Positions 1,087 through 62,902 of a DNA stretch of 63,395 nt are shown here, one piece after another. The notes beneath the pieces were generated by a model. The model did no database searches, was not told the DNA's origin, and saw nothing but the letters and a program-made list of their open reading frames with translations. Position 1 is the stretch's first letter; each line of letters starts with the position of its first letter. The position numbers and the translations under genes were made by a program. This stretch comes from a virus (lineage: Duplodnaviria; Caudoviricetes). Where the stretch lies: positions 1-63,395 of the IMG/VR virus record IMGVR_UViG_3300037205_000035; one strand, 5' to 3'.

Positions 1087-1544
1087 TGCGACAAAAGTAC
1101 CACAGTTACTCCCGCAAGCGCGGGCGGAAGCCAGGCTCAAAGCGAATGCCGTGGCCGTCACCGTGGATCGTAAGCGTGTGGCGGCTGCTCCCTTGCCTGG
1201 GTTACCGGCTGAGTTGCGAAGCGGTAGAAGCGGCGGCGGTTTATTTTGCGGATCGGCCCAATCCCTGAACAGCGGGCAGAGGGCCGGAAGCGATCAGGCT
1301 CAGTTACGGAAGCAAATCAATCCCCAGAAGTAGCAGGTAACCGGGCAGGGCGGACCTTGAAAACAGTCCCCACCCTCCATGTACGCCGAACCAGCCTCGC
1401 AGTTCTGGCTGGCCTTGACCGGCGACCCGGAAGACATGCAGAGCATCGCAACGGCGGCGAGTGCGCTTTTAAATTTGATCATGCCAGTACAGTGCCACAT
1501 TCTCGGAAAATTCTCAAACTATTATTATGGCGTAATCATTACAC

Positions 1545-1574
1545 TTGACCTATGCCTATTCGACATAGTAGGAT
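1545..1574 (+). promoter_or_regulatory. Putative sigma70 promoter of the HTH gene, overlapping an ACCTATGCCTA operator-like site
   Basis: TTGACC-18-TAGGAT; ACCTATGCCTA at 1548-1558. Confidence 0.45.
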
Positions 1575-1583
1575 AATAATAAG

Positions 1584-1805
1584 TTGGCTATAGATCCAAA
1601 GATTTTGAACTCAAAGGGTGTACGATTCGGGGCACTAATCCTCAACATATCTGAGGTTAGTAGGAGAACTGGCCTTAGTCAGTCCTATGTGTCCCGCATC
1701 TTACACGGTAAAAGATACCCTAATCTTCTAGTCTGTAAGAAGTTGTGCGATATTCTCTGTATGGATCTCGATGATTTCCTAGCTACTATACAGGAGAGAT
1801 CTTGA
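1584..1805 (+). CDS. XRE/Cro-family helix-turn-helix regulator
   Basis: NISEVSRRTGLSQSYVSRILHGKRYPNL HTH signature. Confidence 0.85.
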   Translation: MAIDPKILNSKGVRFGALILNISEVSRRTGLSQSYVSRILHGKRYPNLLVCKKLCDILCMDLDDFLATIQERS

Positions 1806-1860
1806 GCTTCGTTCAATTCGCCGGAACTACAATGTATTTAAGAGGGTCGGCTAAACTTTA

Positions 1861-1892
1861 ACCTTGCCTATTAGGCATAGGTGTGGTAACCT
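1861..1892 (+). promoter_or_regulatory. Promoter with inverted-repeat operator upstream of the helicase
   Basis: TTGCCT-17-(TGg)TAACCT; ACCTTGCCTA-T-TAGGCATAGGT inverted repeat at 1861-1882. Confidence 0.5.
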
Positions 1893-1900
1893 ACATTTGG

Positions 1901-3460
1901 ATGAAAATTCCTTCCCCACAATCTGTAGGATTACCTGAGAAATTCCCCAAGTGGAGATCAGGTCAAGAGGAAGCTATAGCACTCTGTCTTGAGAATCCCA
2001 AGAGAGCTACTGTTTTGAGTGCACCCACAGGTTCTGGCAAGACGATCTCATATGTGGCAGCAGCATTACTATCAAAACTTCCAACTGTAATCGTTACAGA
2101 ATCCAAAGGATTGCAGAATCAGTTGATGCAGGACTTTTCAGAGATAGGGATGGTTGATATACGTGGTAGGAAAAACTACCAGTGTGATCTTAAGCCAGAT
2201 TACACCTGTGAAGAAGGCCACGCTGCTAGATGCCCGTACAAGGGGACTATTGGATGCCCTTCATCCCAAGCTGAAATGGCTGCTGCTAGTTCTAACCTAG
2301 TTGTTACCAACTATGCTAAATGGTGTGCGTCTAAGAAGTATGGGCAAGGAATGCAGCACTTCCAACAAGTGATATTTGATGAATGCCACTCTGCACCTCA
2401 CGCTCTCGCATCAGCAATGCAAGTAGTTCTCAACCATAAAGAGATTGAGGAGGGGCTTAAGATTCCATTCCCTGCTTCCTCTACTGCTGTTGACTTCCCT
2501 AACTGGAAACCTTGGGCATCTGCTGCTAAAGTGATTGCTGAGGCTGCAATGATTACAGCCCAAGCACGTATTACTGGCATCTCTGACCCAAAGCCTAGCT
2601 GGGTTAAGCACTATACCCACATGCGTAATCTGATGCGGAGACTAGCAACTCTAGCAACAGCTAATCCTCGTGAATGGATCGTAGAAGAGGTAGAGGCTGG
2701 ATATCAGTTTGACCCTATACGTCCCGGCAAGTATGCTGAGGCTGCTCTGCTGTTTAGGATTCCCAAGATTATTGCTGTAAGTGCCACAATCCGGCCTAAG
2801 ACAATGTACATGATTGGGATTGGAAAGGATAACTTTGAATTTAAGGAGTTTGATTCCAGTTTTGATAGAAAGCGTTGCCCAATATACTACATCCCAACAA
2901 TGCGTGTGGACGCTCGGAATCCTGATCTACGAATGTTGTGGGTTAAGCTTGATCAAATTGCAGCTAAACGGAGGGATAGAAAAGGTCTAGTACATACTAT
3001 CTCTTATACTCGGCGTGATGACATTCTCAATACTAGTCGTTTTGCTTCTTCGATGATCATCAACCCTAAAGGTGAGCCTACTGCTGACACTATTGAGCAG
3101 TACATAGATTCTCCTCCAGGAACTATCCTTGTCAGTCCTAGTATGGGGACTGGGTATGACTTCGCTGGTAAAACCTGTGAATGGCAGTTCATTTGCAAAA
3201 TACCGTTTGAGCCACCATCTAAGATTGTCAAGGCGAGAGAGGCCGATGACAAGGAGTACAGGGCATATCAAGCAATGCAGGGTCTGGTTCAAATGTGTGG
3301 CCGACCAATGCGAAGTAAAGAAGATCAAGCTGAGACGTTCATTTGTGACGATCATATTCAATGGTTTCTACCAAAATATGCTCATCTTGCACCCCGCAGT
3401 TTTCACGGATTTTTTAATCAGGTATCCATAGTTCCTGCACCACCTCCGAGGTTGCCGTAA
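1901..3460 (+). CDS. SF2 DinG/Rad3-like helicase
   Basis: Q motif (WRSGQ), Walker A APTGSGKT, Cys cluster, DECH, SAT, QMCGRPMR; ATG at 1901 preferred. Confidence 0.85.
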   Translation: MKIPSPQSVGLPEKFPKWRSGQEEAIALCLENPKRATVLSAPTGSGKTISYVAAALLSKLPTVIVTESKGLQNQLMQDFSEIGMVDIRGRKNYQCDLKPDYTCEEGHAARCPYKGTIGCPSSQAEMAAASSNLVVTNYAKWCASKKYGQGMQHFQQVIFDECHSAPHALASAMQVVLNHKEIEEGLKIPFPASSTAVDFPNWKPWASAAKVIAEAAMITAQARITGISDPKPSWVKHYTHMRNLMRRLATLATANPREWIVEEVEAGYQFDPIRPGKYAEAALLFRIPKIIAVSATIRPKTMYMIGIGKDNFEFKEFDSSFDRKRCPIYYIPTMRVDARNPDLRMLWVKLDQIAAKRRDRKGLVHTISYTRRDDILNTSRFASSMIINPKGEPTADTIEQYIDSPPGTILVSPSMGTGYDFAGKTCEWQFICKIPFEPPSKIVKAREADDKEYRAYQAMQGLVQMCGRPMRSKEDQAETFICDDHIQWFLPKYAHLAPRSFHGFFNQVSIVPAPPPRLP

Positions 3461-4046
3461 TGACTACAGGTACACAAGCTCCTGACAATGCAGACAAGAT
3501 AGTTTATAATTCACTATCCGGCTCTGGTACTTATTACATCTGGCTTAGTGAGTTTGGCTTCTGGTGCTGGGCAGCACTAGGTAATAGTGGCAAGGCTGTT
3601 ACTAGGTATGATGCTGAGCAGCAAGCTAAGAGGTGGATCAGAAGTGAACACTGAGATACTAGACGAGCGCATATTAGAGCGGCTAGACGAACTTAAGCGC
3701 ACAGTTCAGATTCACAGTCAGGTTATAGAGAGGCAGTTTCCACCTAATACTGTAGTGGATGAGTCTCTTAACAGTATCGAGATGAGTGTAATTTTACTCA
3801 ACTCGTGTATTAAAGAAAGGTTGGGTTGCTGATGGAGCAGAGGGCTAAAACGTCAAAACCGCCCCTGACGATACAGATACAATTCGCATGTGGGTGTGGA
3901 TTTACAACAGACGTGCTAAGAGCAGCGGAAGAACATGCGTTTTTGCATGACCATTCCTTAACCGTAACCGGGATGATTCGTTCACCCCACCGTGAAGTTA
4001 ATAGACAACCACGAGAGCAGAAAATAGAAAGGGAGTTCAAATACTA

Positions 4047-4949
4047 ATGGCATTGCCAAAGAAAAACGTGCCCGAACTTGAAATCGTCAATATCGGGTCA
4101 CTTGAGTTTTACACAGCGGGATTCAGCATTCCTGAAGGTAACTACACTTGGAAAGATGCAAGTGTGGTTATGCACGCCGGATTCAAAGAGAATAGCAATC
4201 AAAAAGCCCGATTGGGTGTAATGATTACGCTTGTTCCTGAAGACGCCCCAACCGAAGAGAAGAAGCAGTTTTATTCTTTCGGTAGCAACGCTGATAAGAG
4301 CTTTGCCCCCAACCCACATACGGGTAAGAGCGTTGTTCTTGTCCCCGGTGCTGCTGGCAACAGTATGCCAGATAGCACTAACTGGGTTGTTCTTCTCCGT
4401 TCTCTGTATGATAGCGGGCTTCCCAGTGGGGTATTTGTGGGAGACTTCTCAGTGTTTGATGGCCTGAAGTGCCACATGACCAGCATTCCTGAACCAGAGG
4501 AGAGAAAGGGTTTTGCTCAATCCCAGACTGGGGAAGCTCAAGCAGAACCCCGCCGCACCAACCAGATTGCCATCGTTACCGAGATCCTGCATGGGCCTTG
4601 GGATGGTGAAGAAACTCCTAAGAAGGCCACAGCCACAACTAAGCCTACAGCAAAACCTGTAGCTAAGAAGGCTGAGCCTGAACCAGAACCTGAGGAAACT
4701 GAGACAGCTACTGATGATGATGTAAAAGCTATTGCAGTAGCGGCTATCAGTGACGTACTTGAGAAAGAGCCGGAAGGTACTCTTAAACTCAAGGCGCGTA
4801 CTACAGCATTCGGCATCATCAAAAAGAAACATGGGGATGATGCAGCACAGGCAGCTACTGAACAGTTCTTCAGCAACGATAATGCTTTTAACAGCATTCT
4901 CGGAGAGCTTGGATATAAAGTGGCTGGCCCGAAGATCGTTCCTGCCTAG
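4047..4949 (+). CDS. Hypothetical replication-module protein (possible ssDNA-binding protein)
   Basis: 300 aa with K/P/E-rich linker; position between helicase and nuclease/AAA genes; function inferred from context only. Confidence 0.4.
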   Translation: MALPKKNVPELEIVNIGSLEFYTAGFSIPEGNYTWKDASVVMHAGFKENSNQKARLGVMITLVPEDAPTEEKKQFYSFGSNADKSFAPNPHTGKSVVLVPGAAGNSMPDSTNWVVLLRSLYDSGLPSGVFVGDFSVFDGLKCHMTSIPEPEERKGFAQSQTGEAQAEPRRTNQIAIVTEILHGPWDGEETPKKATATTKPTAKPVAKKAEPEPEPEETETATDDDVKAIAVAAISDVLEKEPEGTLKLKARTTAFGIIKKKHGDDAAQAATEQFFSNDNAFNSILGELGYKVAGPKIVPA

Positions 4950-5320: not shown

Positions 5321-5935
5321 ATGATTGTACACGAGATCCCCGCTGAAATATCGCTACCAGAACCACTGACGCCTAGATCAGCGGGGATTCACGTTTCCGG
5401 GATTATACGGGCAATAGCTACTGAGGCTGGCATCCTGAAGCCTGAAGTAGCTGAAGAAGTATCACTAGTTGATGCCCGCTCTATTACTGATCCTGTAGCT
5501 ATTCTCCGAATATCGTTAGGGTTGGCGTGGGAGGAGTACTATCTGCCCAAAGTTCCCGGCCTCATTGACCATCCGGGTGAGATGAAAGTGGATGGCGTCT
5601 ACATGACACATGACGGGGAAAGTCTTGATGTAATCACTACAGAGCATACTCAACGATACGAGACTGTATGCCATGAGTGCAAACTTACTTGGAAGAGTAC
5701 TAAGACTGTTGGTGATCTCAGCAATCAGTTCATGTGGCTTTGTCAGATTAAAGCGTACTGCAAAGGATTGAACACAAGGTTTGCAAAGCTACACGTCTAT
5801 TTTGTGTGTGGCGATTACACTTACCCGATTCGTCCTCAGTTACGGGTTTGGTTGATTGAGTTCTCCGAGGAAGAGATTGATGGTAACTGGGACATGCTGA
5901 TAGACTACCGAGATGTTTTCGTACAAGGACAATGA
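5321..5935 (+). CDS. PD-(D/E)XK exonuclease-like protein
   Basis: THDG...HECKLTW...QIKAYC (D..ExK..QxxxY pattern). Confidence 0.65.
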   Translation: MIVHEIPAEISLPEPLTPRSAGIHVSGIIRAIATEAGILKPEVAEEVSLVDARSITDPVAILRISLGLAWEEYYLPKVPGLIDHPGEMKVDGVYMTHDGESLDVITTEHTQRYETVCHECKLTWKSTKTVGDLSNQFMWLCQIKAYCKGLNTRFAKLHVYFVCGDYTYPIRPQLRVWLIEFSEEEIDGNWDMLIDYRDVFVQGQ

Positions 5936-6789
5936 TACTACCTAACTCATTTCTACGTGATGGCTTTGTGAGTGCTGAGACAGCCCGCAAACGCCGATTT
6001 CTTCCCGGCTTACAACGTCCGGGTATTCTGATTGGTACTGAGGGAGAGACTAACACAGGAAAGACAGAGTTCATCCTGTCTTGTCCCGGCCCCGGCATCG
6101 TGCTTGCTGTAGACCGAATGTACGATGCTGTTCTTGACAACCCAGAACCCCCAGTCTCCCGCAATGACAATTTTGCTTTCAAAGAGATCAAGTTGTCAAT
6201 GGCGACTATGGCAGAGGATCACAAGGCAGTCTGGAAGTCATTCTATGAGGACTACATCAAAGCTCTTGCTAACCCAGATGCTAGAACAGTAGGCATTGAC
6301 GGGGATAGTGATACATGGGAGGTGCAGAGACTTGCTGAGTTTGGTAAACTCACTCAAATTCCATCTATCATGTACGTTGGTGTCAATGCGGCTAGGCGTG
6401 TAATGATTGCACGAGCATTTGATAGTGGCAAGATTGTTGTTGCCACTAACAAGGTCAAGCATGAGTATGTGACAGTCAGAGATGAAGAAGGGAACCCGAA
6501 GCTGAGCAAGGATGGGAAGGAAGTAAGAGAGAAGAGTGGGGATTTTGTCAGGCAGGGGTTTGATGATGACAACTACTTATGGCATATCCAATTGCGGCAT
6601 CTGAGAAAAGACGCTTACATCAACCCTAAGACTGGCAAAGAAGTTAAGACTCAGTTTGGTATTAGGATTCTGAAGTGCAAGAGTAATCCGGGGTTGAAAG
6701 GTGAGGAGTTGTGGGGCAGTGATGCTAACTTTGCTGGACTTGTGCAGTTAGCATATCCCAATACCGAGATAGGAGAGTGGGGTTTATGA
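5932..6789 (+). CDS. P-loop AAA ATPase (Sak4-like)
   Basis: Walker A GETNTGKT, Walker B-like VGIDGD, next to the exonuclease. Confidence 0.65.
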   Translation: MILPNSFLRDGFVSAETARKRRFLPGLQRPGILIGTEGETNTGKTEFILSCPGPGIVLAVDRMYDAVLDNPEPPVSRNDNFAFKEIKLSMATMAEDHKAVWKSFYEDYIKALANPDARTVGIDGDSDTWEVQRLAEFGKLTQIPSIMYVGVNAARRVMIARAFDSGKIVVATNKVKHEYVTVRDEEGNPKLSKDGKEVREKSGDFVRQGFDDDNYLWHIQLRHLRKDAYINPKTGKEVKTQFGIRILKCKSNPGLKGEELWGSDANFAGLVQLAYPNTEIGEWGL

Positions 6790-7178
6790 GTGGGTTTGAT
6801 GCAGTGCTCAGTTTGGTCAGTATCTCATCTTTACTCTGGATAATATTTAATTCTAGGGATAAATCAGATGGGCTAATATGTGATGATTGTGACTCAGAGA
6901 TATTGGCCTACTCTTCTCACATCCCACTTGAAGCCCTCAAAGCCATATCAGCCATCTATGAGGAAGGTGCGGAGAAATATGGGGATGTGGACAACTGGAA
7001 GACTAAGTACAAGTCTGAGGAAGCTCTTGAGGAGAGGCTTAAGCACGCTCAAATTCACCTATTGAAGTGGGTTTCAGGGGCTGAAACTGGTGAGGATGAC
7101 ATAGCGAAAGTAGCATGGTTCTGCTGCATGGTGATTTATATGCGAGAGAGGCACGGCATTGAATTGCCGCGAGAGTAA
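6786..7178 (+). CDS. dATP/dGTP diphosphohydrolase (DUF5664)-like protein
   Basis: IPLEAL...EEGAEKYG..NWK...HL..W..G...EDDIAKVAW. Confidence 0.7.
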   Translation: MSGFDAVLSLVSISSLLWIIFNSRDKSDGLICDDCDSEILAYSSHIPLEALKAISAIYEEGAEKYGDVDNWKTKYKSEEALEERLKHAQIHLLKWVSGAETGEDDIAKVAWFCCMVIYMRERHGIELPRE

Positions 7179-7187
7179 TCATTACAC

Positions 7188-8353: not shown

Positions 8354-8448
8354 TGTAATGATTACGTTTGATGCAGCGCCGAAACGTGCCGCGTAGAGGA
8401 GTGCGGGCCTTTTGAGGCAGCGCGGTAACCCCGCGAAAGGAAAAGAAG

Positions 8449-8727: not shown

Positions 8728-9250
8728 CCCCGCGTGGAGGAATTTATGACCATAAACGATCTGCAAAAAGTATGGGTTCCCTGAGAGGGTGTAATGATTA
8801 CAACTCTCTACACAGCCGAAGAACAAAAGAAGTGGCACGAAGCACACCCAACAGAGAAGATGAAGATAGATGGCGGCTGGTACCACTTCCCAACAGGTGA
8901 TATCATGTACACCCACAGTAACACTCAAATGGTCCCATGCACTCAATTCACGCCTTGGGATGACATCTTTCTAGCACTCAAGAGAGGATGCTCAATACGG
9001 CTAATCAGATGATTACAGCAAGATCAGGAGATGTATACAAGTACTTAGATGCTAGAACCAGAAAGAGTGTGCTGGTTGAGTGTATCCTAGGCCAGCTACA
9101 GGTTAGGTATGACGAGGATAATCTAGCCCACACTGAACCAGAAGTGTACACCCAAGCGTATGCAGATAGCATAGTTAGGCAGATGAACAGTCGGACAAGC
9201 AGCCTAGTATTAGATTTTGCACGCTACTTGCTTATTACTAGAATAACTGC

Positions 9251-10621
9251 ATGAGCCGCTGTTCCTTATGCCCAAATGTCAACAACTGTGTATCACCCTC
9301 TGGCCCTGAGGACAGCCCCTATATCCTACTCGGTGAAGCGCCCGGAGTTGAAGAAAATAGGAAGGAGATGCCATTTGTCGGGAAGACTGGACGTGAACTT
9401 AACGAGCATTACTTGCCTCTCGCGGGACTTAGACGCAATTCTGTCAGAGTCCATAATGCGATCTCCTGCTATCCAACAAGCAATCAGGGAAAGCTTGATC
9501 CCAAGTCGAGTAAAGATAGTGAGCTACTTTCTGTCTGTGCCGCCCACCATCTGTATCCAGAACTTGAGCGACGTACCCATAAGCTTATCGTGCCAATGGG
9601 TAATTTTGCCTGTAGAGCCATTGACCCTACGATAGATTTAGAATTGCAGCATGGAATCCCACTTAAAACTAAGTGGGGTCCAGTTTTTCCAATGTACCAC
9701 CCTGCTGGCGGCATTCACATGCCTAAGGCAATTCTTAAAATTCGCACAGATTGGATCAGGCTCAAGAAATATATCAAGGGAACCCTACTTGAACCCTACG
9801 ATGAGTTTGAGGGTCAAGAAGACTACCGAGTAATAGACACTGTTGAGGAACTGGATGTAATCCTTACATATCAGTGGCAGCGCCCACTAGCTTGTGATAC
9901 TGAGACTATCAAAGGTGGGGCACCTTTCTGCTTCAGCTTCTCTGTTGATGCCGGAACTGGCTACCTGATATTGGCCTCACGTAGAGACTTATTGGATAGG
10001 CTACAGTGGCACTTAGATAAGTGGCGGGGAGTTATTCTCTGGCACAACTGGTTATTCGATGCTGAAGTTGTGCGAAGAATGAATCTCAGGTTCAACCGTA
10101 AGCTTATACGTGATACGATGGTGCTTGTGTTTCATATCGGAAACTTGCCCCAAGGCTTGAAGGCGCTTGCGTATCGAGAGCTAGGCATGACCATGATGGA
10201 TTTTATGGACATGGTTACTCCACACTCCAGGCAACGTGTCTTGAAATACTACAGAGACATGTATGCAGTAAAGTGGCCTAAGCCTGAAGCTCAAATGTTG
10301 CGAGATAAGGATGGGAAGTGGAAGGTAAAGCAGCCCCACACTCTAAACACCAAGCTTAAGAGCTTCTACACATACCTAGCCAAAGACCCTGACAAGAACG
10401 TGTTTGAGGCGTGGGATAACTGGGAAGATTCACATCAGATGATTCAAGATGAGTGTGGGGAGTATCCAGGTACCTGCATAACCCACGCTTGGGAAGATGA
10501 CCCTGCTAAAGTCATCTTCTATAGTGCGAGGGATGCTGACGCTTTACTGAGGATCTACCCAATCATTAAGGGCATGGCAACAAGAGTCCGTAGAGCACCA
10601 CAAGAATTGTGGCGGAATTGA
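9251..10621 (+). CDS. Family-4 uracil-DNA glycosylase fused to a 3'-5' exonuclease (N-terminal part of a split DNA polymerase A)
   Basis: CxxC, LLGEAPG..E...PFVG, MYHPA; then CDTET, HNWLFD, DTM, YSARDA exonuclease motifs. Confidence 0.85.
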   Translation: MSRCSLCPNVNNCVSPSGPEDSPYILLGEAPGVEENRKEMPFVGKTGRELNEHYLPLAGLRRNSVRVHNAISCYPTSNQGKLDPKSSKDSELLSVCAAHHLYPELERRTHKLIVPMGNFACRAIDPTIDLELQHGIPLKTKWGPVFPMYHPAGGIHMPKAILKIRTDWIRLKKYIKGTLLEPYDEFEGQEDYRVIDTVEELDVILTYQWQRPLACDTETIKGGAPFCFSFSVDAGTGYLILASRRDLLDRLQWHLDKWRGVILWHNWLFDAEVVRRMNLRFNRKLIRDTMVLVFHIGNLPQGLKALAYRELGMTMMDFMDMVTPHSRQRVLKYYRDMYAVKWPKPEAQMLRDKDGKWKVKQPHTLNTKLKSFYTYLAKDPDKNVFEAWDNWEDSHQMIQDECGEYPGTCITHAWEDDPAKVIFYSARDADALLRIYPIIKGMATRVRRAPQELWRN

Positions 10622-10830
10622 GGCGTAATCATTACATGCAATTCACACCAGTACCAAAGAACAAGCGGGCATCTATCAAACGCAACAAGCCATCAGTTAA
10701 TGTGAGGAAGTACTTCAACAAAGAGTTAGGGTCAGCACTGGATATAGTTGATCTATACCAGATTAGTAAGTGTGCCGACATAGCCAGAGACACCAGAGCT
10801 ACAAGGTACGATAGGAGACGGCCACAATGA
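10609..10830 (+). CDS. Small basic hypothetical protein between the two polymerase parts
   Basis: Overlaps both neighbours; start uncertain. Confidence 0.4.
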   Translation: MAELRRNHYMQFTPVPKNKRASIKRNKPSVNVRKYFNKELGSALDIVDLYQISKCADIARDTRATRYDRRRPQ

Positions 10831-12778: not shown

Positions 12779-12922
12779 TCCCGACGCACTGTAATGCTTA
12801 CATGGTAAAACATAACCCTTTAAACGGTTAGATTCTTGGTTCAAATCCAAGCCTCCCCACCATTCACCTTTTTCATATGGGGAGGTTGTTTAAAAACAAC
12901 TAGCAGGACGATCTCGCCGGGA
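12779..12922 (+). ncRNA. Y-RNA-like unit 2 carrying a circularly permuted tRNA
   Basis: TCCCGACG..CGCCGGGA, CACT/GATCT, TTACATG; TAACC/GGTTA arm, CTTGG-TTCAAAT-CCAAG, CTCCCCA-CCA...TGGGGAG, GTTGTT/AACAAC. Confidence 0.75.
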
Positions 12923-18053: not shown

Positions 18054-18095
18054 GCGTAATGATTACGCTTTCTTCTTAGGTGGATTCCATAAGGT

Positions 18096-43727: not shown

Positions 43728-43830
43728 CCGGGCTAGTGCTGTGAAGCGCAAGTTCACCCAACTGTAATTATTACACTTGGATGTTAACGGGGCCTCGCTA
43801 CTGTCATGAGACAGAAGAGGGCTAAAAGCA

Positions 43831-45057: not shown

Positions 45058-45090
45058 CAGTGTAATGATTACGGACAAAAGGAAAACACA

Positions 45091-48578: not shown

Positions 48579-48613
48579 TCAAATGGTAAATGTAATCATT
48601 ACGGTTAAATCCC

Positions 48614-53203: not shown

Positions 53204-53402
53204 TTTGGGTGTAATCATTACACTGTGTAGTAATGATAGAACGTGGTATACTAGTGATACCAGAATCGAATAGGTCGGCTCTGGCGTGTGCTACAAGAAA
53301 CGGCTTGACCCAGTTAGGATACAACCCTAAATCTCTGATCCGAGATGGGGTGTTTGTGGGTCAGTACTTCTTTGGGATCTTAAGACCTGAAGGAGCATAA
53401 AA

Positions 53403-54428
53403 ATGGCCGTAATCATTACATCCTCAGTAATACCGGATAAGAAGCTAATTAGACAGGTAGAACTTAGTGACCTATCGAACTTAGTGGAGCTTGCGCGTAC
53501 TTTTTTAGCTTCATCCCAAACACTTCAAATTGAGGATTTTGATTTAGGCAAGTTCATATCTACATGGTCTGCCTTAATCACTTCGGGTATTGGGGTCATA
53601 TTCATTGTTGGAAATTTTGAGGGGGCTATTGGGGGGATTGTTAGGCAGGATATTTATGGGGATAAGTGGGTTGGTGAGGAATTATTCTGGTTTGTTAAAC
53701 CGGAGAGCAGAGGAGTTGGTATAGCCCTCTACCAGGAATTTGAACAGTGGTGTGGATTACATGGAGCATCATCTATGCAGATGGTACACATAAATGATCT
53801 TATGCCGGGGAAAGTTAGGAATTTCTATCTTAGAAGTGGCTTTAGAGAGGTAGAGACTAGGTACGCTAAATCACTTAAAACCATAGAAGTCATAGATGAC
53901 TTTTTGTTTGATCCCAAGTCGTATCAGAAAGATTGCATAATGGCGGAATTTAAGTCCTACCATTTTGCAGATGAGGACTGCACATTTCATGGTATATCTC
54001 CAGTCCCATTAGATAGCCTGATTCCTACCCAGATAATCAAGTTATTTCCATCTGCTAAGCCCACTCTATCTTTTCTAAGGAAAAGCCCTTTAGGGCAGGT
54101 AGAGCCACACTATATACACACAGACACTGATATGGGAGAGTGGAGTGCTATCCTATACCTGAACGACAACCCCCCAGATGGGGATGGTACAACCTTCTGG
54201 AAACATAAATCAGGAGTAGTTGGCAGCTTTATACCCCATGAAAGGTCTAGTGAGGGTCAAACACGTAATGGGTGGGCCGAATATGCAAATGTAAAGTCTA
54301 AATTTAATAGACTTTTGATTTTCAAATCGGAGCTTTTTCACTCCCGTTCTATTTTTGATAATTGGGGAGATGATCAGGAGTCTAGGCTTACTCAGATTAC
54401 TTTTGGGAAAGGTAAAATACTAGTATGA
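53403..54428 (+). CDS. GNAT acetyltransferase fused to a 2OG-Fe(II) oxygenase-like domain
   Basis: WFVKPESRG..FYLRSGF; VIDDFL..HTD..ILYLN..GTTF..FNRL..FHSR. Confidence 0.75.
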   Translation: MAVIITSSVIPDKKLIRQVELSDLSNLVELARTFLASSQTLQIEDFDLGKFISTWSALITSGIGVIFIVGNFEGAIGGIVRQDIYGDKWVGEELFWFVKPESRGVGIALYQEFEQWCGLHGASSMQMVHINDLMPGKVRNFYLRSGFREVETRYAKSLKTIEVIDDFLFDPKSYQKDCIMAEFKSYHFADEDCTFHGISPVPLDSLIPTQIIKLFPSAKPTLSFLRKSPLGQVEPHYIHTDTDMGEWSAILYLNDNPPDGDGTTFWKHKSGVVGSFIPHERSSEGQTRNGWAEYANVKSKFNRLLIFKSELFHSRSIFDNWGDDQESRLTQITFGKGKILV

Positions 54429-55315: not shown

Positions 55316-55340
55316 TTGTAATGATTACATTGGATAAAAT

Positions 55341-57029: not shown

Positions 57030-59530
57030 TGTCTTCTCCTGTATCCTCGATATTCGTACCCCCTGATCCTAGTATCGGCCAAGCCCCTAGTAACTTTGTG
57101 CCCCCAGATCCATCCCTAGGTAGACCAAAAAGTGTAATCAATACACAGGATGATCGTAATGTTACTCAGAAGATTATAGGTGGATTGCTGGAAGGTGCTA
57201 CTTCCACTATTCCGGCTGCTGCTACATCTATTATTCACCCGTATGATGCTCTAACCAACCTAATACAGTCTCATAAGGACACATACAGTAAAGCTGTTGA
57301 TTCATTCAAGTCTGGGGATATATCGGGTGGTCTTCAGCATTTGGCCAGTAGTGGTATACCCTTAATTGGCCCTATGGCTGATGATCTTGTTGATTATGCC
57401 ACTAGTGAGAAGGCAGACCCGGAAGAAGCTGCTAGGAAATTAGGAAGTGTACTAGTAGCGTTGGGGGCACCTAAAGCCATTAAAGAATCTCCAGCCCTAC
57501 TTAAATCTACAGCAGGTAGGATCTGGCCGGATTTACTAAAGGCAGATGTTTCTAAAGATTTAATTAACTCATATTCTCCTACTGATCCCCGATTCAACGA
57601 GAGGGCACCGGGAGCGGCTGCGGATATCAAGAAGTATGCAATAGATGGGAACGGTAAACCTGTAACTATTACAGGTAACGAGCATCTAGCCTCTACTTCT
57701 CCATCTCAGGTGGTAACCCCAGCACTGCAAGCTAATCGGGCGGCTATGGACGCATGGCATCAGCCAGTTCAGCAGGCTGGTATTACTGCATCCCCTAGTA
57801 ACATACTTAAGGCTACTCAGGATAGTCTTAAGTCTATGGCTGACCCTACTACTAGGCAAGCATTACTGGATGAAGCTAGGGGGGAGATCAACCAGCAGCC
57901 ATTAACTGCGGATAGACTAAAAGAGCTTATCGAAGAAAAGAATGGGGAGTTGAAGGGATTCTATTCTAAAGATCCAGCTATTCAAGCTGCTGCAAAACAG
58001 GCGGGGGCTGTTAGTGGCAAGTCACAGGCTTTACTTGAAGCTCAAGCTCAAGCTTTACGTGATGAATACTATAATATGTTGGACCCTCAGAATGGTGGGG
58101 CAGGCCCTCGTGAGATTCAGAGACGGTATGGGGCTATTAAGATGCTTCAGGACGAAGCCAGTGCAGGAGCTACCCGTAATAAGATACTTGGTGAGACTGG
58201 TGGATCTGCGGCATCCAAGTTTACTCAAGCTGGATTGAATACTCTTGATTTAGTCGGAGCGCCTTTTAGAGAAGGTGGGCTGTCTGAGGGCCTTAATAGG
58301 ATACTTGAGCCATTTAGGGGTGAGACTGATCCACTAATTAAGCGTGCTTTTGCTAATGCCCCCGATTCCACACCTTTGCCTCAAGCACCATCTATTCAGC
58401 AGAGGTATCCTCAGTCATTTGGATCTAGGCAAATCACTGCTGGAACTACACCCCCTGTCAATGTTCAGCCATCTAGTGGGCGTGTAATCATTACGCCTCA
58501 ATCTTCACAGGAAGCTATTGCTCAAGGTATTGCTAGAGCAGCAGATACTACGCCGGGGGTTAACGATGTAGGTGGCGGATATCGTACACTAGGGCCTGCT
58601 AGGACTATATTTCAGGGGACTGAAGTTCCACCCACTAAACCGATCACTGTGCGGCTTGCAGATGGTTCAATAGTGCCGGGAGTTCCACTTGAGGATAGGG
58701 GATTACCGACTGATCCAAGTAGGACTGTTCCACCAGTCCAGCAAACTAGTGGGGCATCAGCTACCCCCTCACCGCAACCTTTTAGGGTTGGATTTCCACC
58801 TGAAGCACCAAAGCAGCTTCTGCCTAGAGATCCTAATAATCCTGCCCCTAATTCTGCCCCGATATTTAAAAAAGATAGTGGAATACCCTTTGATAAGGTT
58901 CGTGTTACGGATAAAACAGACGCACTGCCTGATTCTGGAGGTGGGATAGGCCCAGGTTTTGGGGTATACCGAGTCCCGCTATCTGAGATTATAAGTAGAG
59001 AGGATATTACTGGGGATAAACTTAAAGCCGCTGATATTCAAGACTACGCTAACCGAATGAAAGCCGGGGATGAACCCCCAGCAGCATTTGGGCATTACGA
59101 TCCGACCACAGGCAAAGTTACTATTACAAGCGGGTCACGTAGGTTTGCAGCGGCTAATGTAGCAGGTAAAGAGGATCTACCTGTAGCCATCTCATCTGAT
59201 TACTCTCCTGAGTCTGGTCCCCCCACAGAATTTCAACAGGGTAAGATGAGGAATGAGAAAGGTCAAGTTTTGGGCGGTAAAACTACTCGTGAAGTAGTCC
59301 AGAAAGGGCAACCTGTAATCACTACACAAAATATTGAACCAGCTAATCCCACTGCTCCAGCCTATGTTTCACCTAGAATGCGGGCATTGATGGATGAAGA
59401 AGCTAACCGTCAGTATGGTGTGAAGTACTCAGATTTGAGAGATGGGTCTACACAGAAAGCTTTTGTTGACTCTCAGATCAGCAAGAATCTTATGAGGCTG
59501 AATAGTCTTATGCAAGGGAAGGTACAGTAA
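57029..59530 (+). CDS. Large ejection protein with C-terminal ParB/Srx-like domain
   Basis: RVPLSEI..DYANRMKAGDEPP..ITSGSRRFAAA..GKEDLPV. Confidence 0.6.
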   Translation: MSSPVSSIFVPPDPSIGQAPSNFVPPDPSLGRPKSVINTQDDRNVTQKIIGGLLEGATSTIPAAATSIIHPYDALTNLIQSHKDTYSKAVDSFKSGDISGGLQHLASSGIPLIGPMADDLVDYATSEKADPEEAARKLGSVLVALGAPKAIKESPALLKSTAGRIWPDLLKADVSKDLINSYSPTDPRFNERAPGAAADIKKYAIDGNGKPVTITGNEHLASTSPSQVVTPALQANRAAMDAWHQPVQQAGITASPSNILKATQDSLKSMADPTTRQALLDEARGEINQQPLTADRLKELIEEKNGELKGFYSKDPAIQAAAKQAGAVSGKSQALLEAQAQALRDEYYNMLDPQNGGAGPREIQRRYGAIKMLQDEASAGATRNKILGETGGSAASKFTQAGLNTLDLVGAPFREGGLSEGLNRILEPFRGETDPLIKRAFANAPDSTPLPQAPSIQQRYPQSFGSRQITAGTTPPVNVQPSSGRVIITPQSSQEAIAQGIARAADTTPGVNDVGGGYRTLGPARTIFQGTEVPPTKPITVRLADGSIVPGVPLEDRGLPTDPSRTVPPVQQTSGASATPSPQPFRVGFPPEAPKQLLPRDPNNPAPNSAPIFKKDSGIPFDKVRVTDKTDALPDSGGGIGPGFGVYRVPLSEIISREDITGDKLKAADIQDYANRMKAGDEPPAAFGHYDPTTGKVTITSGSRRFAAANVAGKEDLPVAISSDYSPESGPPTEFQQGKMRNEKGQVLGGKTTREVVQKGQPVITTQNIEPANPTAPAYVSPRMRALMDEEANRQYGVKYSDLRDGSTQKAFVDSQISKNLMRLNSLMQGKVQ

Positions 59531-60021
59531 TGAAGGCAGCAGCCACAGTAGCCAAAGACTTTAAGACGGCGATTGATATTGAGGCAACCCTACACAACAA
59601 GTACCAACTGTCCAAAAGACAGTTCAAGTACTGGGGATTGAATGGCCCAGCCTGTCACCTTGGTAAGTTCCAACACTCCTGTCATGATTTTGTTAATATG
59701 ATAACTCGTCGTGCTCTGTTTTTGCAGGTTGAGGACTTATCCTACCAGCCAGACAAGATTGGTATGGACGTGGGGGTTAAAGCGGTTCTTGCTACTCTAC
59801 TTGATCTTGAGGTAAAAGCATCTGAGTTTTACGAGACTGCTGTAGCCAATGCTTTCAAGGCCAATGATACCCCGTCGATGAAGCTGTTCTCTCATTTATG
59901 TAAGTGGCATCAGGCTGATTACAAGACAGGTAAGGGGGATGGACACTTGGATTGGCTTGAGAAGCAGATTGACCAAATTAACCGAGTGGGAGAAAAAGAG
60001 TACATAACAGCCCATATCTAA
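59530..60021 (+). CDS. Bacterioferritin-like protein with degenerate ferroxidase centre
   Basis: E18, Y25, WGL35-37, E94 and HLDWLEKQI..I..VG...Y colinear with Bfr. Confidence 0.75.
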   Translation: MKAAATVAKDFKTAIDIEATLHNKYQLSKRQFKYWGLNGPACHLGKFQHSCHDFVNMITRRALFLQVEDLSYQPDKIGMDVGVKAVLATLLDLEVKASEFYETAVANAFKANDTPSMKLFSHLCKWHQADYKTGKGDGHLDWLEKQIDQINRVGEKEYITAHI

Positions 60022-60069
60022 ATCTGATATAATGATGTATAGCCTCACTGTCGGGAGATAGAGAGAGAG

Positions 60070-61176
60070 ATGATAAAACGACTAGGTGTAATCATTACGG
60101 TGGTGGTATGGGGGATGTTGGCTCAATCCCCTATTCCACAAACGCCATTTCAAGCAATAGATACTCGTAGTGGCACAGCTATACCCTGTGTAGGATGTCA
60201 GCTATTTACTTATGTTGCGGGTACTACAACTTCTCTTGCAACATATACGGACGCTACTCTTGGGACAGAAAATACAAACCCAGTACTAACTAATTCTGCT
60301 GGTTACTCTGTCAGTGGGTCTACTATTGTGGGGGTATTCGTTGGCCTTAACACCTGCTATAAACTTGTCCTTGAAGACTCCAGTAATGTTGTTATTTGGA
60401 CTCAGGACGGCATCTGCTATCTCCCATCTACAGCTTCCCCGTCTTTTACTAACCTTACTGTTAGTGGGACTCTCACAGCTAATGGCACTGTTACTGGAAC
60501 TCACTTACAGAGTGTGGGCACTATGGATAGCCCAACTTTTGTATCAGTTTCTGTATCTGGATCAATTCTACCTACTACTGCGGCTGGGGCAGCGGTTGGT
60601 TCCCTAGCTAAACCATTTTCGTCAATCTACATAGGACCGTCAGCGAGTACTGGGGAGCTATTATCCGCCCCTAACCTAACTACTAATCGTCAGGTTAATT
60701 TTGCTGACCAAGGGGCATCGGGCGCTGTAGCTTTTGGGGATCAGAGTGATGCCACTAAGGTAGCTATAATTAGCACTAGTTCGGCAACTACAGGAACTAA
60801 TACAACACTAGCAATTAATTCTACATCTGGTAGGCTGATATCTTTTCCAGATGCTTCCTTTACGGTATCCGGGGCTAAAGCTACAGAGTGTGGAACAGCA
60901 GCGGGAGCTTGTGCTGGCACTAATATTGGAACTACTGTCAAGATCATCCGAGGGACTGCAACGGCTACCAGTGGAACACCCTCAACAGTATCAATAACTG
61001 GGATTACACCTGTGTTTACGGCTACTACAACAGTTAGCTGCTTTGCTGAAGACGTTACGAACGTAGCCAATGTGTTTCAGGTTTTGACAGGGGGCTATAT
61101 CAGCACTTCCGCCGTAACATTTACTGGACCGGCCTCTGTTACTGACGTAATTAGATGGACTTGCATAGGATATTAA
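60070..61176 (+). CDS. Tail fibre/tailspike-like protein (head-binding-like N-domain)
   Basis: LFTYVAGTTT..TYTD..NTNPV..YKLVLED..WTQD. Confidence 0.7.
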   Translation: MIKRLGVIITVVVWGMLAQSPIPQTPFQAIDTRSGTAIPCVGCQLFTYVAGTTTSLATYTDATLGTENTNPVLTNSAGYSVSGSTIVGVFVGLNTCYKLVLEDSSNVVIWTQDGICYLPSTASPSFTNLTVSGTLTANGTVTGTHLQSVGTMDSPTFVSVSVSGSILPTTAAGAAVGSLAKPFSSIYIGPSASTGELLSAPNLTTNRQVNFADQGASGAVAFGDQSDATKVAIISTSSATTGTNTTLAINSTSGRLISFPDASFTVSGAKATECGTAAGACAGTNIGTTVKIIRGTATATSGTPSTVSITGITPVFTATTTVSCFAEDVTNVANVFQVLTGGYISTSAVTFTGPASVTDVIRWTCIGY

Positions 61177-61184
61177 GGAGAAAG

Positions 61185-61670
61185 ATGCGGAACGTAATCA
61201 TTACACTTTTGGTTGTTAGTTGCCTGTTTTCGCAACCTACTCCAACATATTTTGTAGCTAGGACTGGGGCAGTATCTCTATCCTCTGCTGGTACATCTGC
61301 TACAGTGCAGCAGCCTGCAACTAATGGAGAAAACATACAGTTTACTAAGGTTGTTGTTAGTTGCCCCGCAAGTTGTACAATTACTCAGACTCAGAATGCG
61401 AATGCAATAACTGGGTCTAGTGGGACTGCTGGTAGTGTGGTTGGGACTGACCCAACTTCGGGAGCATCTTTCTTATTAACATTCTGGACCGCTGTTACGT
61501 TATCAGGGGGTACTGTGACTAATGCTTTCCCCTGTTCTGCTGCTTGTACCCAAGCATTCGACTTGTCTGCAATAAAGTTTGGGAATACTGGAACAAGCAC
61601 AAATTACTCAGTAACTATCTCGTCTGTTACCGGAACAGCCTATATTGATTTTTACGGATACCGCCAATGA
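61185..61670 (+). CDS. Thr/Ser-rich tail-module protein with signal-like N-terminus
   Basis: AAGGAG SD; MRNVIITLLVVSCLFS-Q. Confidence 0.55.
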   Translation: MRNVIITLLVVSCLFSQPTPTYFVARTGAVSLSSAGTSATVQQPATNGENIQFTKVVVSCPASCTITQTQNANAITGSSGTAGSVVGTDPTSGASFLLTFWTAVTLSGGTVTNAFPCSAACTQAFDLSAIKFGNTGTSTNYSVTISSVTGTAYIDFYGYRQ

Positions 61671-62902
61671 AAATCGTAATCATTACACTTTTGCTGGTAA
61701 TAGGCTGCTCGGCTCAATTTCCAATTCCAGATAGTTCGGTTAGTGGTGGCTCATCAGGGGGAGGGGGCACCCCCGGCGGATCTACTGGGCAGATTCAGTA
61801 CAACAATGCTGGAGCTTTCGGTGGCTACACTATTGTTCCGGCGGCTAATATAGGCGCAGCCGGAACCGGGAACCAACTTCAGATACGGAACTCGTTCACC
61901 GGCGCGCTGCTTGGCGTCACACTGTCCGGCGATGGAACGCTTGGAGCCACCGGCACGCTGACCGTGACGGGAACAAATGGCGCTGCGTTGCCTGTGAGCG
62001 CGGCGGCTTTGGCGACAAATTCTAGTGGGCAGATTATCGCGGGAGCCCCCTGCGGCACCGGCACCGCCCAGGGCCAGATAGCCGTATCCGGGGCAAGCCC
62101 GTTTACGGGGTGCTCGTTTGGGACGGCGACGTTGAGTGGTGGGGCGCTGACGTTGAGCGCGGCAGGTACGGCAAGCTCGATCACGTTCGGCAACGCCACA
62201 TCCGGCACCCTTACCCTTCAGCCCGTTACTGGAGCACTGGGAACGGTGACGATTTCGGCACCTGCGTCCACCGGGACGATGGCACTGACTAACATCAATA
62301 ATGCTTTCTCGACTACGCAGGGGTTCACGTCTATAACCGCCTCCGGGACGGTGACCGTAAACCAACCCGGCATAGGCTCAACCCCCACCTACAATATCCA
62401 AAGCATCAACTCCACCAACGCAGCAGCAGGTGCTCAACAATGGGCGTGCGGACCTCTGATTCAGGGGCAAGGCTGGGGCACGACTGCACCCGGTTCGCAG
62501 TCTGTGGCGTTTGCGGATTGCGTACAGCCGGTGCAGGGGACTACGGCACCGAGCGGGACCAGAAACACTTACGCGATTATCAATGGGACGCCGACGAATG
62601 TGATGAGTTTGACGAGTGGGGGAGCGCTTTCTTTGTCAGACCTTACTATTAACGGTGACGTCATAACATCCCTTTCTGGAAATGCTCTTAATATCAATAC
62701 CTCCAATGGACTATTAGTAACAGGCAGAATAACAGGCGGAAATGCAGGGTTAGTGTTAACTAATTCGTCATATATCACGACGACAGCAGGACAGGTAAGC
62801 CTGGGCAGCGCAACCGCCGCTGTCTCGAACTGTGGCGCAGTCGCAACCGCCTGTCTGGTTATCAACGTCGCCGGAACCACTCGATACATTCCGTATTACT
62901 GA
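61667..62902 (+). CDS. Gly/Thr-rich tail fibre-like protein
   Basis: PGGSTGQIQYNNAGAFGG; C-terminal INVAGTTRYIPYY. Confidence 0.65.
   Translation: MKIVIITLLLVIGCSAQFPIPDSSVSGGSSGGGGTPGGSTGQIQYNNAGAFGGYTIVPAANIGAAGTGNQLQIRNSFTGALLGVTLSGDGTLGATGTLTVTGTNGAALPVSAAALATNSSGQIIAGAPCGTGTAQGQIAVSGASPFTGCSFGTATLSGGALTLSAAGTASSITFGNATSGTLTLQPVTGALGTVTISAPASTGTMALTNINNAFSTTQGFTSITASGTVTVNQPGIGSTPTYNIQSINSTNAAAGAQQWACGPLIQGQGWGTTAPGSQSVAFADCVQPVQGTTAPSGTRNTYAIINGTPTNVMSLTSGGALSLSDLTINGDVITSLSGNALNINTSNGLLVTGRITGGNAGLVLTNSSYITTTAGQVSLGSATAAVSNCGAVATACLVINVAGTTRYIPYY

Follow-up and report, generated by a model that had tools for sequence, protein, structure and literature searches.

A genome-wide 13-bp palindrome in a lineage of uncultured phages and a partner-less ParB/KorB-like protein as its candidate reader

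Introduction

Which protein reads a short palindrome that recurs throughout a phage genome, within genes as well as between them? The question is raised by the IMG/VR virus record IMGVR_UViG_3300037205_000035, a complete podovirus genome of 63,395 bp (hereafter the window, i.e. the whole stretch of DNA that was analysed), and by the palindrome GTAATSATTAC, to which an earlier note on the same DNA had drawn attention. We find that the observation is real and strongly non-random. A comparison of the window with its relatives suggests that a dimeric, partner-less ParB/KorB-like protein encoded by the phage itself probably docks and loads at the palindromes, and that these are spaced over the whole genome while the word and its reader evolve together.

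Results and Discussion

Number, structure and placement of the sites

Exact copies of the GTAATSATTAC core number 36 in the window, from position 1532 to 61686. In 100 dinucleotide-preserving shuffles the mean number of cores was 0.02 and the maximum was 1, i.e. none of the 100 reached 36. The earlier note had counted at least 36 perfect cores against roughly 0.03 expected, and this count stands. Copies with one mismatch are also in excess (26 vs. about 2 expected from a third-order Markov model); copies with two mismatches are not enriched under the same model (14 vs. about 21 expected). The near copies reported in the earlier note are thus real, but there are more of them than the 14 or so that it gave.

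The 11-bp core described in the note is correct, but the unit is longer. It is a 13-bp palindrome of 6-1-6 architecture, YGTAATSATTACR in the window and TGTAATSATTACA in the relatives. At position -6 the exact sites have C or T in 34 of 36 cases, at position +6 they have A or G in all 36, and no conserved flank was found beyond +/-7. Note that the forms with a central C and a central G are one and the same duplex seen from opposite strands. The combination T...A on both flanks is present in 9 of the 36 exact sites as compared to 21 of the 26 one-mismatch copies, and 21 of the 26 mismatches are located at the two inner positions of the half-site. Such a compensation of a mismatch by the flanks is the behaviour of sites that are selected for a threshold of binding energy, i.e. 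affinity.

Gene borders were taken from our own calling of longest open reading frames (ORFs) rather than from a gene finder. On this basis 16 of the 36 exact sites are not wholly within an ORF and 20 are. Among the latter, 12 are read in frame 0 (giving V-I/M-I-T) and 8 in frame 1 (giving x-N-H/D-Y), the third frame being closed by the TAA within the palindrome; the recurring VIIT/VMIT and RNHY/CNDY-type peptides described previously are therefore correct. Sites are indeed found in PolA (12139) and in the Sf6-type small terminase TerS (32636). The site that had been assigned to the ejection protein (55318) falls 3 nt past the stop codon and is outside the gene, and neither the gp10-like label nor the Ro60 label of the ORF at 13228-14802 could be confirmed, the sole match of the latter ORF being a PHROG 'RNA-binding protein' (7.4e-7) with no Pfam match at 1e-3. 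Several sites of the window provide the TAA stop of one gene or occupy the first codons of the next.

Statistics of placement were collected from 359 sites in 14 genomes of the lineage. As many as 180 of these sites are intergenic or at most 12 nt from a gene end, as opposed to 40.2 expected; 47 of the 359 supply a TAA stop codon, and the in-gene frames are used 126 vs. 47 times. The density is about one site per 1-2.5 kb over entire genomes. A test of the spacing, which the earlier note had proposed, shows that the sites are distributed more regularly than by chance (P<0.05) in 10 of the 14 genomes, with coefficients of variation between 0.38 and 0.96. No orientation bias relative to the nearest gene was detected (80 C vs. 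103 G on the sense strand, six genomes). Within 17500-35000 the surroundings of the sites show no enrichment of promoter-like signals (20 vs. 28.1 expected) and a terminator-like flag was found on 2 of the 11 sites; most sites have no T-run. The papers that a literature search for the core retrieved concern, judged by titles and abstracts, unrelated primers or constructs.

Private site variants and conversion in place

Relatives were gathered by scanning viral contigs for exact 14-mers and subsequently by PolA- and ParB-based searches. More than 20 related records of uncultured phages carry dispersed palindromes, at a density of one per 1.3-2.5 kb. Among them are 13 further whole records (G001-G013) which contain 16-38 copies of their own class word each; the number of class-1 cores is 33, 38, 25, 26, 19 and 25 in G001-G006 and 16, 10 and 18 in G008-G010. 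In most class-1 relatives nearly all copies are the full 13-mer TGTAATSATTACA, T...A-flanked copies amounting to 33/33, 36/38, 25/25, 25/26 and 19/19.

The outer GTA...TAC is constant in all site classes, of which there are at least nine (Table 1). The changes affect the centre (S to W) and the inner AT, which becomes AC, AA, TA, GT or GC; there are also 12-bp forms. G009 contains mixed GTAAY-S-RTTAC forms, L170 and L169 have relaxed forms.

Table 1. Site classes of the lineage and the records in which they occur
Site class	Core	Records and copies
Class 1, AT-S-AT	GTAATSATTAC	window, G001-G006, G008, G010 and others
Class 2, AT-W-AT	GTAATWATTAC	G007, 33 copies + 5 S-type; G013, 32/32 W-type
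Class 3, AC-S-GT	GTAACSGTTAC	G012, 17/17
AA-S-TT	GTAAA-S-TTTAC	L185, 15 copies
TA-W-TA	GTATA-W-TATAC	L183, 12 copies
GT-S-AC	GTAGT-S-ACTAC	L191, 8 copies
GC-S-GC	GTAGC-S-GCTAC	L177, 4 exact + 7 near copies
AT-CG-AT (12 bp)	GTAAT-CG-ATTAC	L179, 6 copies
AT-GC-AT (12 bp)	GTAAT-GC-ATTAC	L228, 6 copies

The distribution of the classes was compared with a tree of 22 PolA sequences, from which G008 (no PolA), G010 and L192 (fragments) and L193 (32% identity) were left out and whose midpoint root serves for drawing only. Class 1 is found in all major branches and the variants adjoin class-1 sisters, i.e. G004/G012 (98/99), G006/L191 (95/94), L174/L179 (99/99) and G002 with G009, G007 and G013 (90/90). 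From this arrangement we infer at least four independent switches of the site class, in each of which every copy appears to have been converted in place.

The comparison of orthologous genes, also proposed in the earlier note, points in the same direction, since sites are retained at orthologous columns and converted there. Column 44 of the helicase carries a site in 8 of 11 genomes, column 184/186 of the ERCC4 nuclease in 9 of 11, and columns 128 or 141 of the protein p204 are also shared. At p204 column 128, G002 has an S-type site, G007 and G013 have the W type, G009 has the Y/R type and the window carries a one-mismatch copy (5630). In frame 0 the change from S to W is either synonymous (ATC, ATA and ATT all encode Ile) or replaces Met by Ile. 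The fact that sites are kept at the same codons over about 50% protein divergence, and are nevertheless converted to new symmetric words, argues for selection by a reader that is itself two-fold symmetric.

The shared replication module

The window and its relatives have a module in common that consists of a helix-turn-helix (HTH) protein, a helicase, three further proteins, ERCC4, UDG/exonuclease, PolA and a RecE-like protein, together with a 463-aa protein encoded on the opposite strand; the identity of the module proteins is 32-71%. The structural genes of the window have no blastp match in the relatives at E 1e-5, except for the tail genes, which match G010. Since only the replication module is shared and yet the sites span all modules, the reader must be either a module-encoded protein or a host factor.

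Two conserved and syntenic DNA-binding proteins are found in the lineage, namely the Cro-like HTH and the ParB-like 463-aa protein. The gene of the latter is conserved in every related record that covers its region; no relative with the module but without this gene was found, as the loci that lack it all end before the region. L193 (PolA identity of 32%) and L167, which has a canonical-type ParB without the hairpin insert described below, show no dispersed palindrome in the 11-13 kb covered. The three further module proteins (4047-4949, 5321-5935 and 5932-6789) gave 0 matches each in a profile search against PDB sequences and no family matches. Their motifs look enzymatic by consensus reading, i.e. 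a Walker A/B (P-loop) ATPase and a D...HEVK, PD-(D/E)XK-type nuclease.

The ParB-like family has a sole match in a cellular genome, the 45-kb contig C89 (L194) of the Patescibacteria metagenome-assembled genome (MAG) G014. This contig is a phage of the present lineage, as it carries the ParB-like gene and both its sites and its recognition helix are of class 1; it may be either a binning artefact or a hint to the host. All 21 palindrome copies of the 1.4-Mb MAG are on this phage-like contig. As far as the MAG is relevant, this speaks against a compositional feature of the host genome (HIP1-like), a possibility that the earlier note had raised by asking whether the motif is equally common in the host.

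The ParB-like protein

The 463-aa protein matches PHROG 1033, 'ParB-like partition protein' (E 1.2e-16), and its profile retrieves Spo0J (2.5e-7), Noc (2.8e-6; 7ol9, N-domain and HTH) and KorB (0.012) from the PDB sequences. Its AlphaFold2 (AF2) model has a pLDDT of 77.3 and a pTM of 0.54. The top Foldseek matches of the model are all ParB-family clamps (ParB-CDP 1.2e-8, Noc 1.4e-7), sulfiredoxin appears further down, and the best superposition is on the KorB-KorA-DNA complex 8qa9 (TM 0.57, rmsd 5.4 A). An N-terminal ParB/Srx-type nucleotide-binding domain is thus recognised by profile, Foldseek and PHROG alike. The putative nucleotide-pocket boxes GxYRxxA and ENxxR are present, with G96, Y98, R99, N136 and R139 invariant or nearly so; in the family representatives G.YR is found in 90 of 102 and an E ahead of NxxR in 97 of 106.

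The HTH directly follows the N-domain; in the model its helices span 161-167 and 182-193 and a beta-hairpin is inserted at 169-179. The recognition helix has the pattern [ST]N[SA]-x-x-N-x-x and the basic beta-hairpin insert immediately precedes it. In the AF2 model this part is followed by a coiled coil of about 150 residues and a C-terminal domain, which is predicted to form a symmetric dimer. The self-complex prediction scores 0.55 (best of 3 controls 0.00) with a symmetric interface at residues 400-456; the runs have at least 62% of the contacts in common, with a partner pLDDT of 71 or more. Among proteins of solved structure, 20 of 30 pairs of one chain reach the mark, as does 1 of 23 single chains, counts that are rough since the alignment was our own. 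Residues 1-35 have a pLDDT below 50, the N-termini are not conserved among the orthologues and no conserved amphipathic helix is evident in them. As regards a partner, the search for ParA was made with PF13614 and not separately with PF01656 (CbiA); it found the domain in 0 of 5 complete or nearly complete genomes of the lineage as opposed to 14 of 14 control genomes.

When 1.84 billion representatives were searched with a profile of the family, 7,282 proteins were retrieved at E<=1e-3 (ordinary ParBs included), 465 at 1e-10 and 230 at 1e-30. The top 150 representatives are nearly all full length. The helix could be located in 116 of these 150, and its three variable positions take 50 combinations (a rough, regex-based count) while the scaffold and the pocket motifs are conserved.

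Co-variation of helix and site

The recognition helix of the ParB-like protein follows the site class. In 7 of the 8 class-1 genomes of the first set it is F.NMT. In class 3 it is F.NMR, accompanied by a 6-residue deletion in the hairpin and a change of Ala to Lys. The remaining half-site classes have the helices H.NNS, H.NML, Y.NIT, W.NIV and W.NII, and the helix M.NIY accompanies the GTAAT half-site irrespective of the centre (S, W or GC). At roughly matched divergence, the helix identity is 0.72 in pairs of the same class and 0.53 in pairs of different classes. The corresponding values for the Cro-like HTH are 0.50 and 0.47, in a comparison that does not include the HTH of G012 (class 3) and G013. 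Two pairs with an N-domain identity of 0.52-0.53 illustrate this difference: G001-G004, with the same site, have a helix identity of 1.00 and a hairpin identity of 0.80, whereas the values are 0.62 and 0.40 in G004-G012, in which the half-site has changed. Among about 40 helix-site pairs no helix type was paired with two different half-sites.

Proposed mechanism

In the mechanism that we propose, the 463-aa protein would bind each site as a dimer joined at its C-termini, with one HTH per half-site and the basic beta-hairpin insert close to the dyad. If the analogy to ParB, Noc and KorB is followed, the dimer may then close as a nucleotide-gated clamp and slide off the site. With a loading site every 1-2 kb the whole chromosome would stay occupied. 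The most likely purpose would be to mark the phage's own DNA genome-wide, for the organisation or compaction of replicating DNA and/or for silencing or timing in the manner of KorB, and private specificities would prevent related co-infecting phages from reading one another's genomes. The earlier note had suggested parS-like sites of a dimeric protein that coats or organises the genome. The comparative data favour that type of site and give the ParB-like protein, which the note also mentions, as the best candidate for the dimer, while coating and organising are functions that we infer.

We may go one step further and speculate, with a good deal of doubt, that the word is a private genome 'barcode' of lytic phages, in other words that the clamp loads only on its own word and coats the DNA end to end, telling self from the host and from co-infecting relatives. 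The barcode might serve a private compartment for replication or packaging, protection against nucleases, or the silencing of rivals with an identical word. In that case, conflict among relatives would lead to repeated switches of reader and barcode, which would explain both the four or more conversions and the 50 helix variants in 116 representatives.

There are several points that weigh against a ParB-like reader and need to be discussed. The clamp mechanism is taken wholly from analogy. Reader and sites are inherited together in one module, so that their co-variation is confounded with phylogeny, and each of the half-site classes other than GTAAT comes down to a single independent lineage, since L217 and G012 are the same phage (L218 has 91% identity to G007). 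The 'code' is degenerate, as F.NMT, M.NIY, M.NIL, I.NIK, F.NMM and other helices all occur with the class-1 site, and classes 1 and 2 share M.NIY despite their different centres. The length of the hairpin was considered as the reader of the centre; it fits G012 and L179 but fails for L228. The peptide patterns used in the metagenome scan are biased to SNS[FM] helices. The Pfam ParB_N match is weak (17 bits in G006, which is below the cut-off, and nothing in 4 of the 5 genomes) and the window protein has no Pfam match at 1e-3, which makes it a divergent member of the ParB family. In addition, the first Arg of the canonical GERR box is a Tyr, and the copy encoded by the window has a His in place of the Glu of ENxxR. 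Finally, the three module proteins without an assigned fold are possible readers, and so is a protein of the host.

Alternative explanations

The sites could also be operators of the Cro/C1-type HTH protein, which would then be a genome-wide dimeric repressor or roadblock, i.e. a symmetric counterpart of stoperators or of the dispersed C1 operators of phage P1, with the ParB-like protein doing something else. HTH_3 proteins typically bind short palindromes as dimers, this one is as conserved and syntenic as the ParB-like protein, and in 5 of 10 genomes a site is located 28-62 nt upstream of its gene, as autoregulation would predict. We nevertheless regard this as unlikely. Genomes that have the same 13-mer differ at the first base-contacting position of its helix (Q, Q, K, T, T, I, N, L, K), the window (class 1) and L170 have the helix QSYVSRIL in common although the site of L170 is another one, and helix identity hardly depends on the site class, as seen above. 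Moreover, half of the sites are well within genes, at positions that have long been conserved, and in 17500-35000 promoter-like signals are not enriched near them. As an observation apart, the Cro-like orthologues of G004, G007, L170 and L183 have a proline-rich C-terminal tail (R-I/L-P...L-P type) that the window copy lacks; the tail might be a docking peptide for a partner.

A somewhat smaller chance is given to one of the three other module proteins, or to a titrated or recruited host protein such as a member of the Fur/Zur family. The former have neither solved relatives nor family matches, which leaves room for them, but their motifs look enzymatic. As for the latter, the class-1 core matches the centre of the CGTAATNATTACG box, which is why the earlier note had considered titration of Zur or Fur. 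This idea is not supported by the comparison: the C...G flanks of the box are present in only 4 of the 36 window sites, the relatives are T...A-flanked in nearly every copy, the central base is fixed as S or W rather than being N, and in the relatives the inner bases have changed in concert to words unlike the Zur box. A host reader would have to change its specificity in step with each phage sub-lineage, and the one candidate cellular genome has 0 copies beyond its phage-like contig. It is very improbable that the repeats are a by-product of mutation or recombination (HIP1-like drive, mini mobile elements, linkers of module junctions), or that they act as RNA or single-stranded DNA hairpins, i.e. 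as terminators, processing sites or priming signals. The location of half of the sites at gene borders, the TAA stops and the two terminator-like flags would fit such a view, and the mean spacing resembles the length of Okazaki fragments. On the other side, the sites are unoriented relative to transcription, a stem of 5-6 bp with a loop of 1-3 nt is weak and lacks a T-run at most sites, no shared flanking sequence marks a mobile element, and neither the retention at the same codons with symmetric conversion in place nor the flank compensation in mismatched copies is what this view would predict.

Comparison with known systems

It is instructive to compare the proposed ParB-like reader and its sites with known systems. 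The closest mechanistic model, by analogy, would be KorB of the IncP-1 plasmid RK2. KorB belongs to the ParB family and combines an N-terminal nucleotide domain with an HTH, and its complex with KorA and DNA is the best geometric match of our model. RK2 carries 12 O_B sites. The 13 bp of the operator O_B form a 6-1-6 palindrome around a central C:G pair (PMC5577506), and KorB loads as a CTP clamp at operators scattered over the replicon and slides in order to act at a distance (PMC11790492). The 13-bp architecture is common to both systems; the word is different, except in site class 8, whose inner 9 bp equal those of O_B. There are also clear differences. KorB is plasmid-borne and works with IncC (a ParA), KorA and TrbA, whereas the phages have no ParA (0/5) and no known clamp-locking partner. 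The density of the phage sites, about one per 1-2.5 kb across a lytic-type genome, is far higher, and the phage protein has the hairpin insert in its HTH and the coiled coil of about 150 residues, with a profile E value of 0.012 to KorB. It is conceivable that the conserved Cro-like HTH protein is the partner of the ParB-like protein in the style of KorA or TrbA.

Noc, a cellular protein, takes part in the control of the division site by tethering DNA to the membrane. It resembles the phage protein as an orphan ParB paralogue without ParA that has a short palindrome in many copies over a whole replicon, the B. subtilis chromosome, but the site word is different and the phage protein has no evident conserved N-terminal amphipathic helix, residues 1-35 being of low confidence. 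A canonical ParABS system differs by its cognate ParA, which is missing here (PF13614 in 0/5 genomes). Noc has been named as an orphan ParB in a 2025 survey, according to which orphan ParB-fold proteins are common on phages and mobile elements and have almost no assigned roles (PMC12704722).

The closest published observation in phages concerns the Cluster O mycobacteriophages, apparently non-temperate, which have a 17-bp dyad repeat in more than 30 copies (34 in Corndog; Cresawn et al. 2015, PMC4351075). Fourteen of the repeats are between ORFs and ten near ORF ends, and the genomes encode a protein with a ParB-like domain, so that here, too, an invariant inverted repeat is found genome-wide together with a ParB-like protein (PMC4351075). 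At the same time the architecture is 7-3-7 (TGTTCGGNNNCCGAACA), the word is another one, the phages are unrelated and the central triplet is partly asymmetric with respect to transcription (PMC4351075). In the passages on the repeats the authors draw no link to the ParB-like protein and describe neither private variants nor conversions in place (PMC4351075).

A second parallel in phages is given by the stoperators of Cluster A, up to about 30 dispersed 13-bp copies per genome, where repressor and motif diverge together between subclusters and thereby cause heteroimmunity (PMC6550527). Stoperators, however, are asymmetric sites that follow the direction of transcription, and the protein that reads them, the immunity repressor of temperate phages, is a monomer (PMC9283540). 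The evolutionary pattern is the same, i.e. a private word and a co-evolving reader, but the present sites are symmetric and unoriented, neither integrase nor ParA was found (0/5 genomes) and the candidate reader has a ParB fold. The earlier suggestion of stoperator-like sites is thus apt as an evolutionary analogy and not as a description of the type of site. In the main texts that our literature search covered, supplements being outside it, we found no paper on dispersed ParB docking sites in a lytic-type phage.

Other features of the genome

The coordinates of the sites and of the two conserved DNA-binding proteins are collected in Table 2. The structural genes of the window include a P22-type portal and coat, the Sf6-type small terminase, the large terminase and an ejection protein; the replication genes are a family A polymerase, a UDG-like/exonuclease ORF, an SF2 helicase, an ERCC4-HhH nuclease and a MazZ-like domain. 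Further DNA-binding or DNA-cutting genes are the Cro/C1-type HTH, an Arc-like repressor and HNH nucleases. No match to deposited phages was obtained by megablast with 20 kb of the window, and tblastn with PolA and the coat protein retrieved distant cultured relatives only (<30% and <=37% identity), so that no host can be named. A tyrosine integrase was found in 0 of 5 complete or nearly complete genomes of the lineage. One of the relatives, G010, shares more than the replication module with the window, as its region 17814-25414 matches the tail and ejection block 54425-61670 at 25-57% identity. Given that the structural genes of the other relatives are unrelated, this is a clear case of module mosaicism.

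The MazZ-like dATP/dGTP diphosphohydrolase N-domain is at 6777-7178 (Pfam PF18909, 3.6e-11). A Z-base genome, which such a domain could suggest, finds no support, as a PurZ-type adenylosuccinate synthetase was not found in the window genome and there is thus no sign of the Z-base pathway. A ParB-dependent thymine dioxygenase system was considered on account of a weak 2OG-oxygenase match in the window and was rejected. The ParBs of that system have no DNA-binding domain and their enzymes favour trinucleotides (PMC13229309); the window oxygenase is not of the TET/JBP type by its Pfam names and is absent from the genes shared by the lineage.

The polymerase region (9251-12263) looks split into a UDG-superfamily/PHROG 'DNA polymerase' ORF (9251-10621), a small ORF and the family A polymerase (10827-12263), a layout that is also retained in relatives. 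A single tRNA-Gln (anticodon CTG, 12683-12756) is positioned between PolA and the next gene block. AGC/CAG-type trinucleotide repeat tracts are found at 22229-22479, 25664-26228 and 29352-29600, the longest being 565 nt of AGCAGC with 82-85% matches; as they are located within the minus-strand ORFs 22149-22889, 25580-26698 and 29295-29840, these early-region proteins must be largely of low complexity. Just past the small terminase gene, at 33370-33398, there is a perfect match to a sigma-70-type promoter (TTGACA, 17 nt, TATAAT, with an upstream TG), the sole 12/12 match within 17500-35000.

Table 2. Palindromic sites and conserved DNA-binding proteins of the window
Feature	Position	Strand	Context
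Cro/C1-type HTH protein, 73 aa	1584..1805	+	Pfam HTH_3 1.4e-8; first gene of shared module
ParB/KorB/Noc-like protein, 463 aa	18096..19487	-	candidate palindrome reader
exact site	1532..1542	.	47 nt upstream of HTH gene start
exact site	4218..4228	.	in 4047-4949, frame 0 (VMIT); alignment column shared with G004 and G009 sites
exact site	7175..7185	.	TAA is stop of 6777-7178; ERCC4 gene 8 nt on
exact site	8355..8365	.	directly past stop of 7907-8353
exact site	8791..8801	.	ATG in site is start of ORF 8794-9012
exact site	10625..10635	.	UDG/exo gene stop + 4 nt
exact site	12139..12149	.	within PolA, frame 1 (RNDY)
exact site	13825..13835	.	within 13228-14802, frame 0 (VIIT)
exact site	17016..17026	.	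TAA is stop of 16753-17019; VMIT near start of next gene
exact site	18056..18066	.	convergent gap, ParB-like stop + 35 nt; also terminator-like flag
exact site	19553..19563	.	about 70 nt upstream of ParB-like start
exact site	20669..20679	.	intergenic
exact site	21463..21473	.	intergenic
exact site	23784..23794	.	stop of 23800-24960 (-) + 11 nt
exact site	25292..25302	.	within 25034-25324 (-), frame 1 (CNDY)
exact site	25557..25567	.	intergenic; terminator-like flag, + strand
exact site	27376..27386	.	at start of 27093-27383 (-)
exact site	32166..32176	.	within small ORF 32001-32219 (-), frame 1
exact site	32636..32646	.	within TerS, frame 0 (VIIT)
exact site	33219..33229	.	TerS stop + 2 nt
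exact site	34786..34796	.	TAA is stop of 34592-34789
exact site	36578..36588	.	within 36527-36781, frame 0 (VIIT)
exact site	39059..39069	.	within 38972-39682, frame 0 (VIIT)
exact site	40399..40409	.	TAA is stop of 40187-40402; portal gene 7 nt on
exact site	42561..42571	.	TAA is portal gene stop
exact site	45062..45072	.	coat gene stop + 5 nt
exact site	46025..46035	.	within 45931-46284, frame 1 (SNDY)
exact site	48592..48602	.	intergenic
exact site	50414..50424	.	within 49036-50568, frame 1 (CNDY)
exact site	53211..53221	.	gap or small ORF ahead of 53403
exact site	53409..53419	.	codons 3-6 of 53403-54428 (VIIT)
exact site	55318..55328	.	ejection-protein gene stop + 3 nt
exact site	58484..58494	.	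within 57011-59530, frame 0 (VIIT)
exact site	60088..60098	.	codons 7-10 of 60070-61176
exact site	61194..61204	.	close to start of 61155-61670
exact site	61676..61686	.	stop of 61155-61670 + 6 nt; at start of 61667-62902
one-mismatch copy	2087..2097	.	helicase gene
one-mismatch copy	2546..2556	.	
one-mismatch copy	3457..3467	.	at helicase stop
one-mismatch copy	5630..5640	.	orthologous to exact sites of G002, G007, G013 and G009
one-mismatch copy	6400..6410	.	
one-mismatch copy	9857..9867	.	
one-mismatch copy	12791..12801	.	
one-mismatch copy	14696..14706	.	
one-mismatch copy	15812..15822	.	
one-mismatch copy	16470..16480	.	
one-mismatch copy	28321..28331	.	
one-mismatch copy	28669..28679	.	
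one-mismatch copy	28817..28827	.	
one-mismatch copy	30000..30010	.	
one-mismatch copy	31441..31451	.	
one-mismatch copy	31994..32004	.	
one-mismatch copy	33724..33734	.	
one-mismatch copy	36823..36833	.	
one-mismatch copy	37397..37407	.	
one-mismatch copy	42966..42976	.	
one-mismatch copy	43764..43774	.	central T, i.e. W form
one-mismatch copy	46780..46790	.	
one-mismatch copy	47847..47857	.	
one-mismatch copy	51167..51177	.	
one-mismatch copy	57134..57144	.	
one-mismatch copy	59315..59325	.	

Conclusions

The lineage described here links the orphan ParB-fold proteins of phages with the unexplained genome-wide dyad repeats that have been on record since Cluster O (PMC4351075). It also provides a natural collection of variant readers and variant sites, which comprises nine or more site classes and 230 representatives of the family at E<=1e-30. 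If the proposed reading is true, it would provide a testable function for the partner-less ParBs of phages and a ready set of orthogonal protein-DNA pairs, as well as a system in which one can study how a binding specificity and tens of sites change together while the function is retained.

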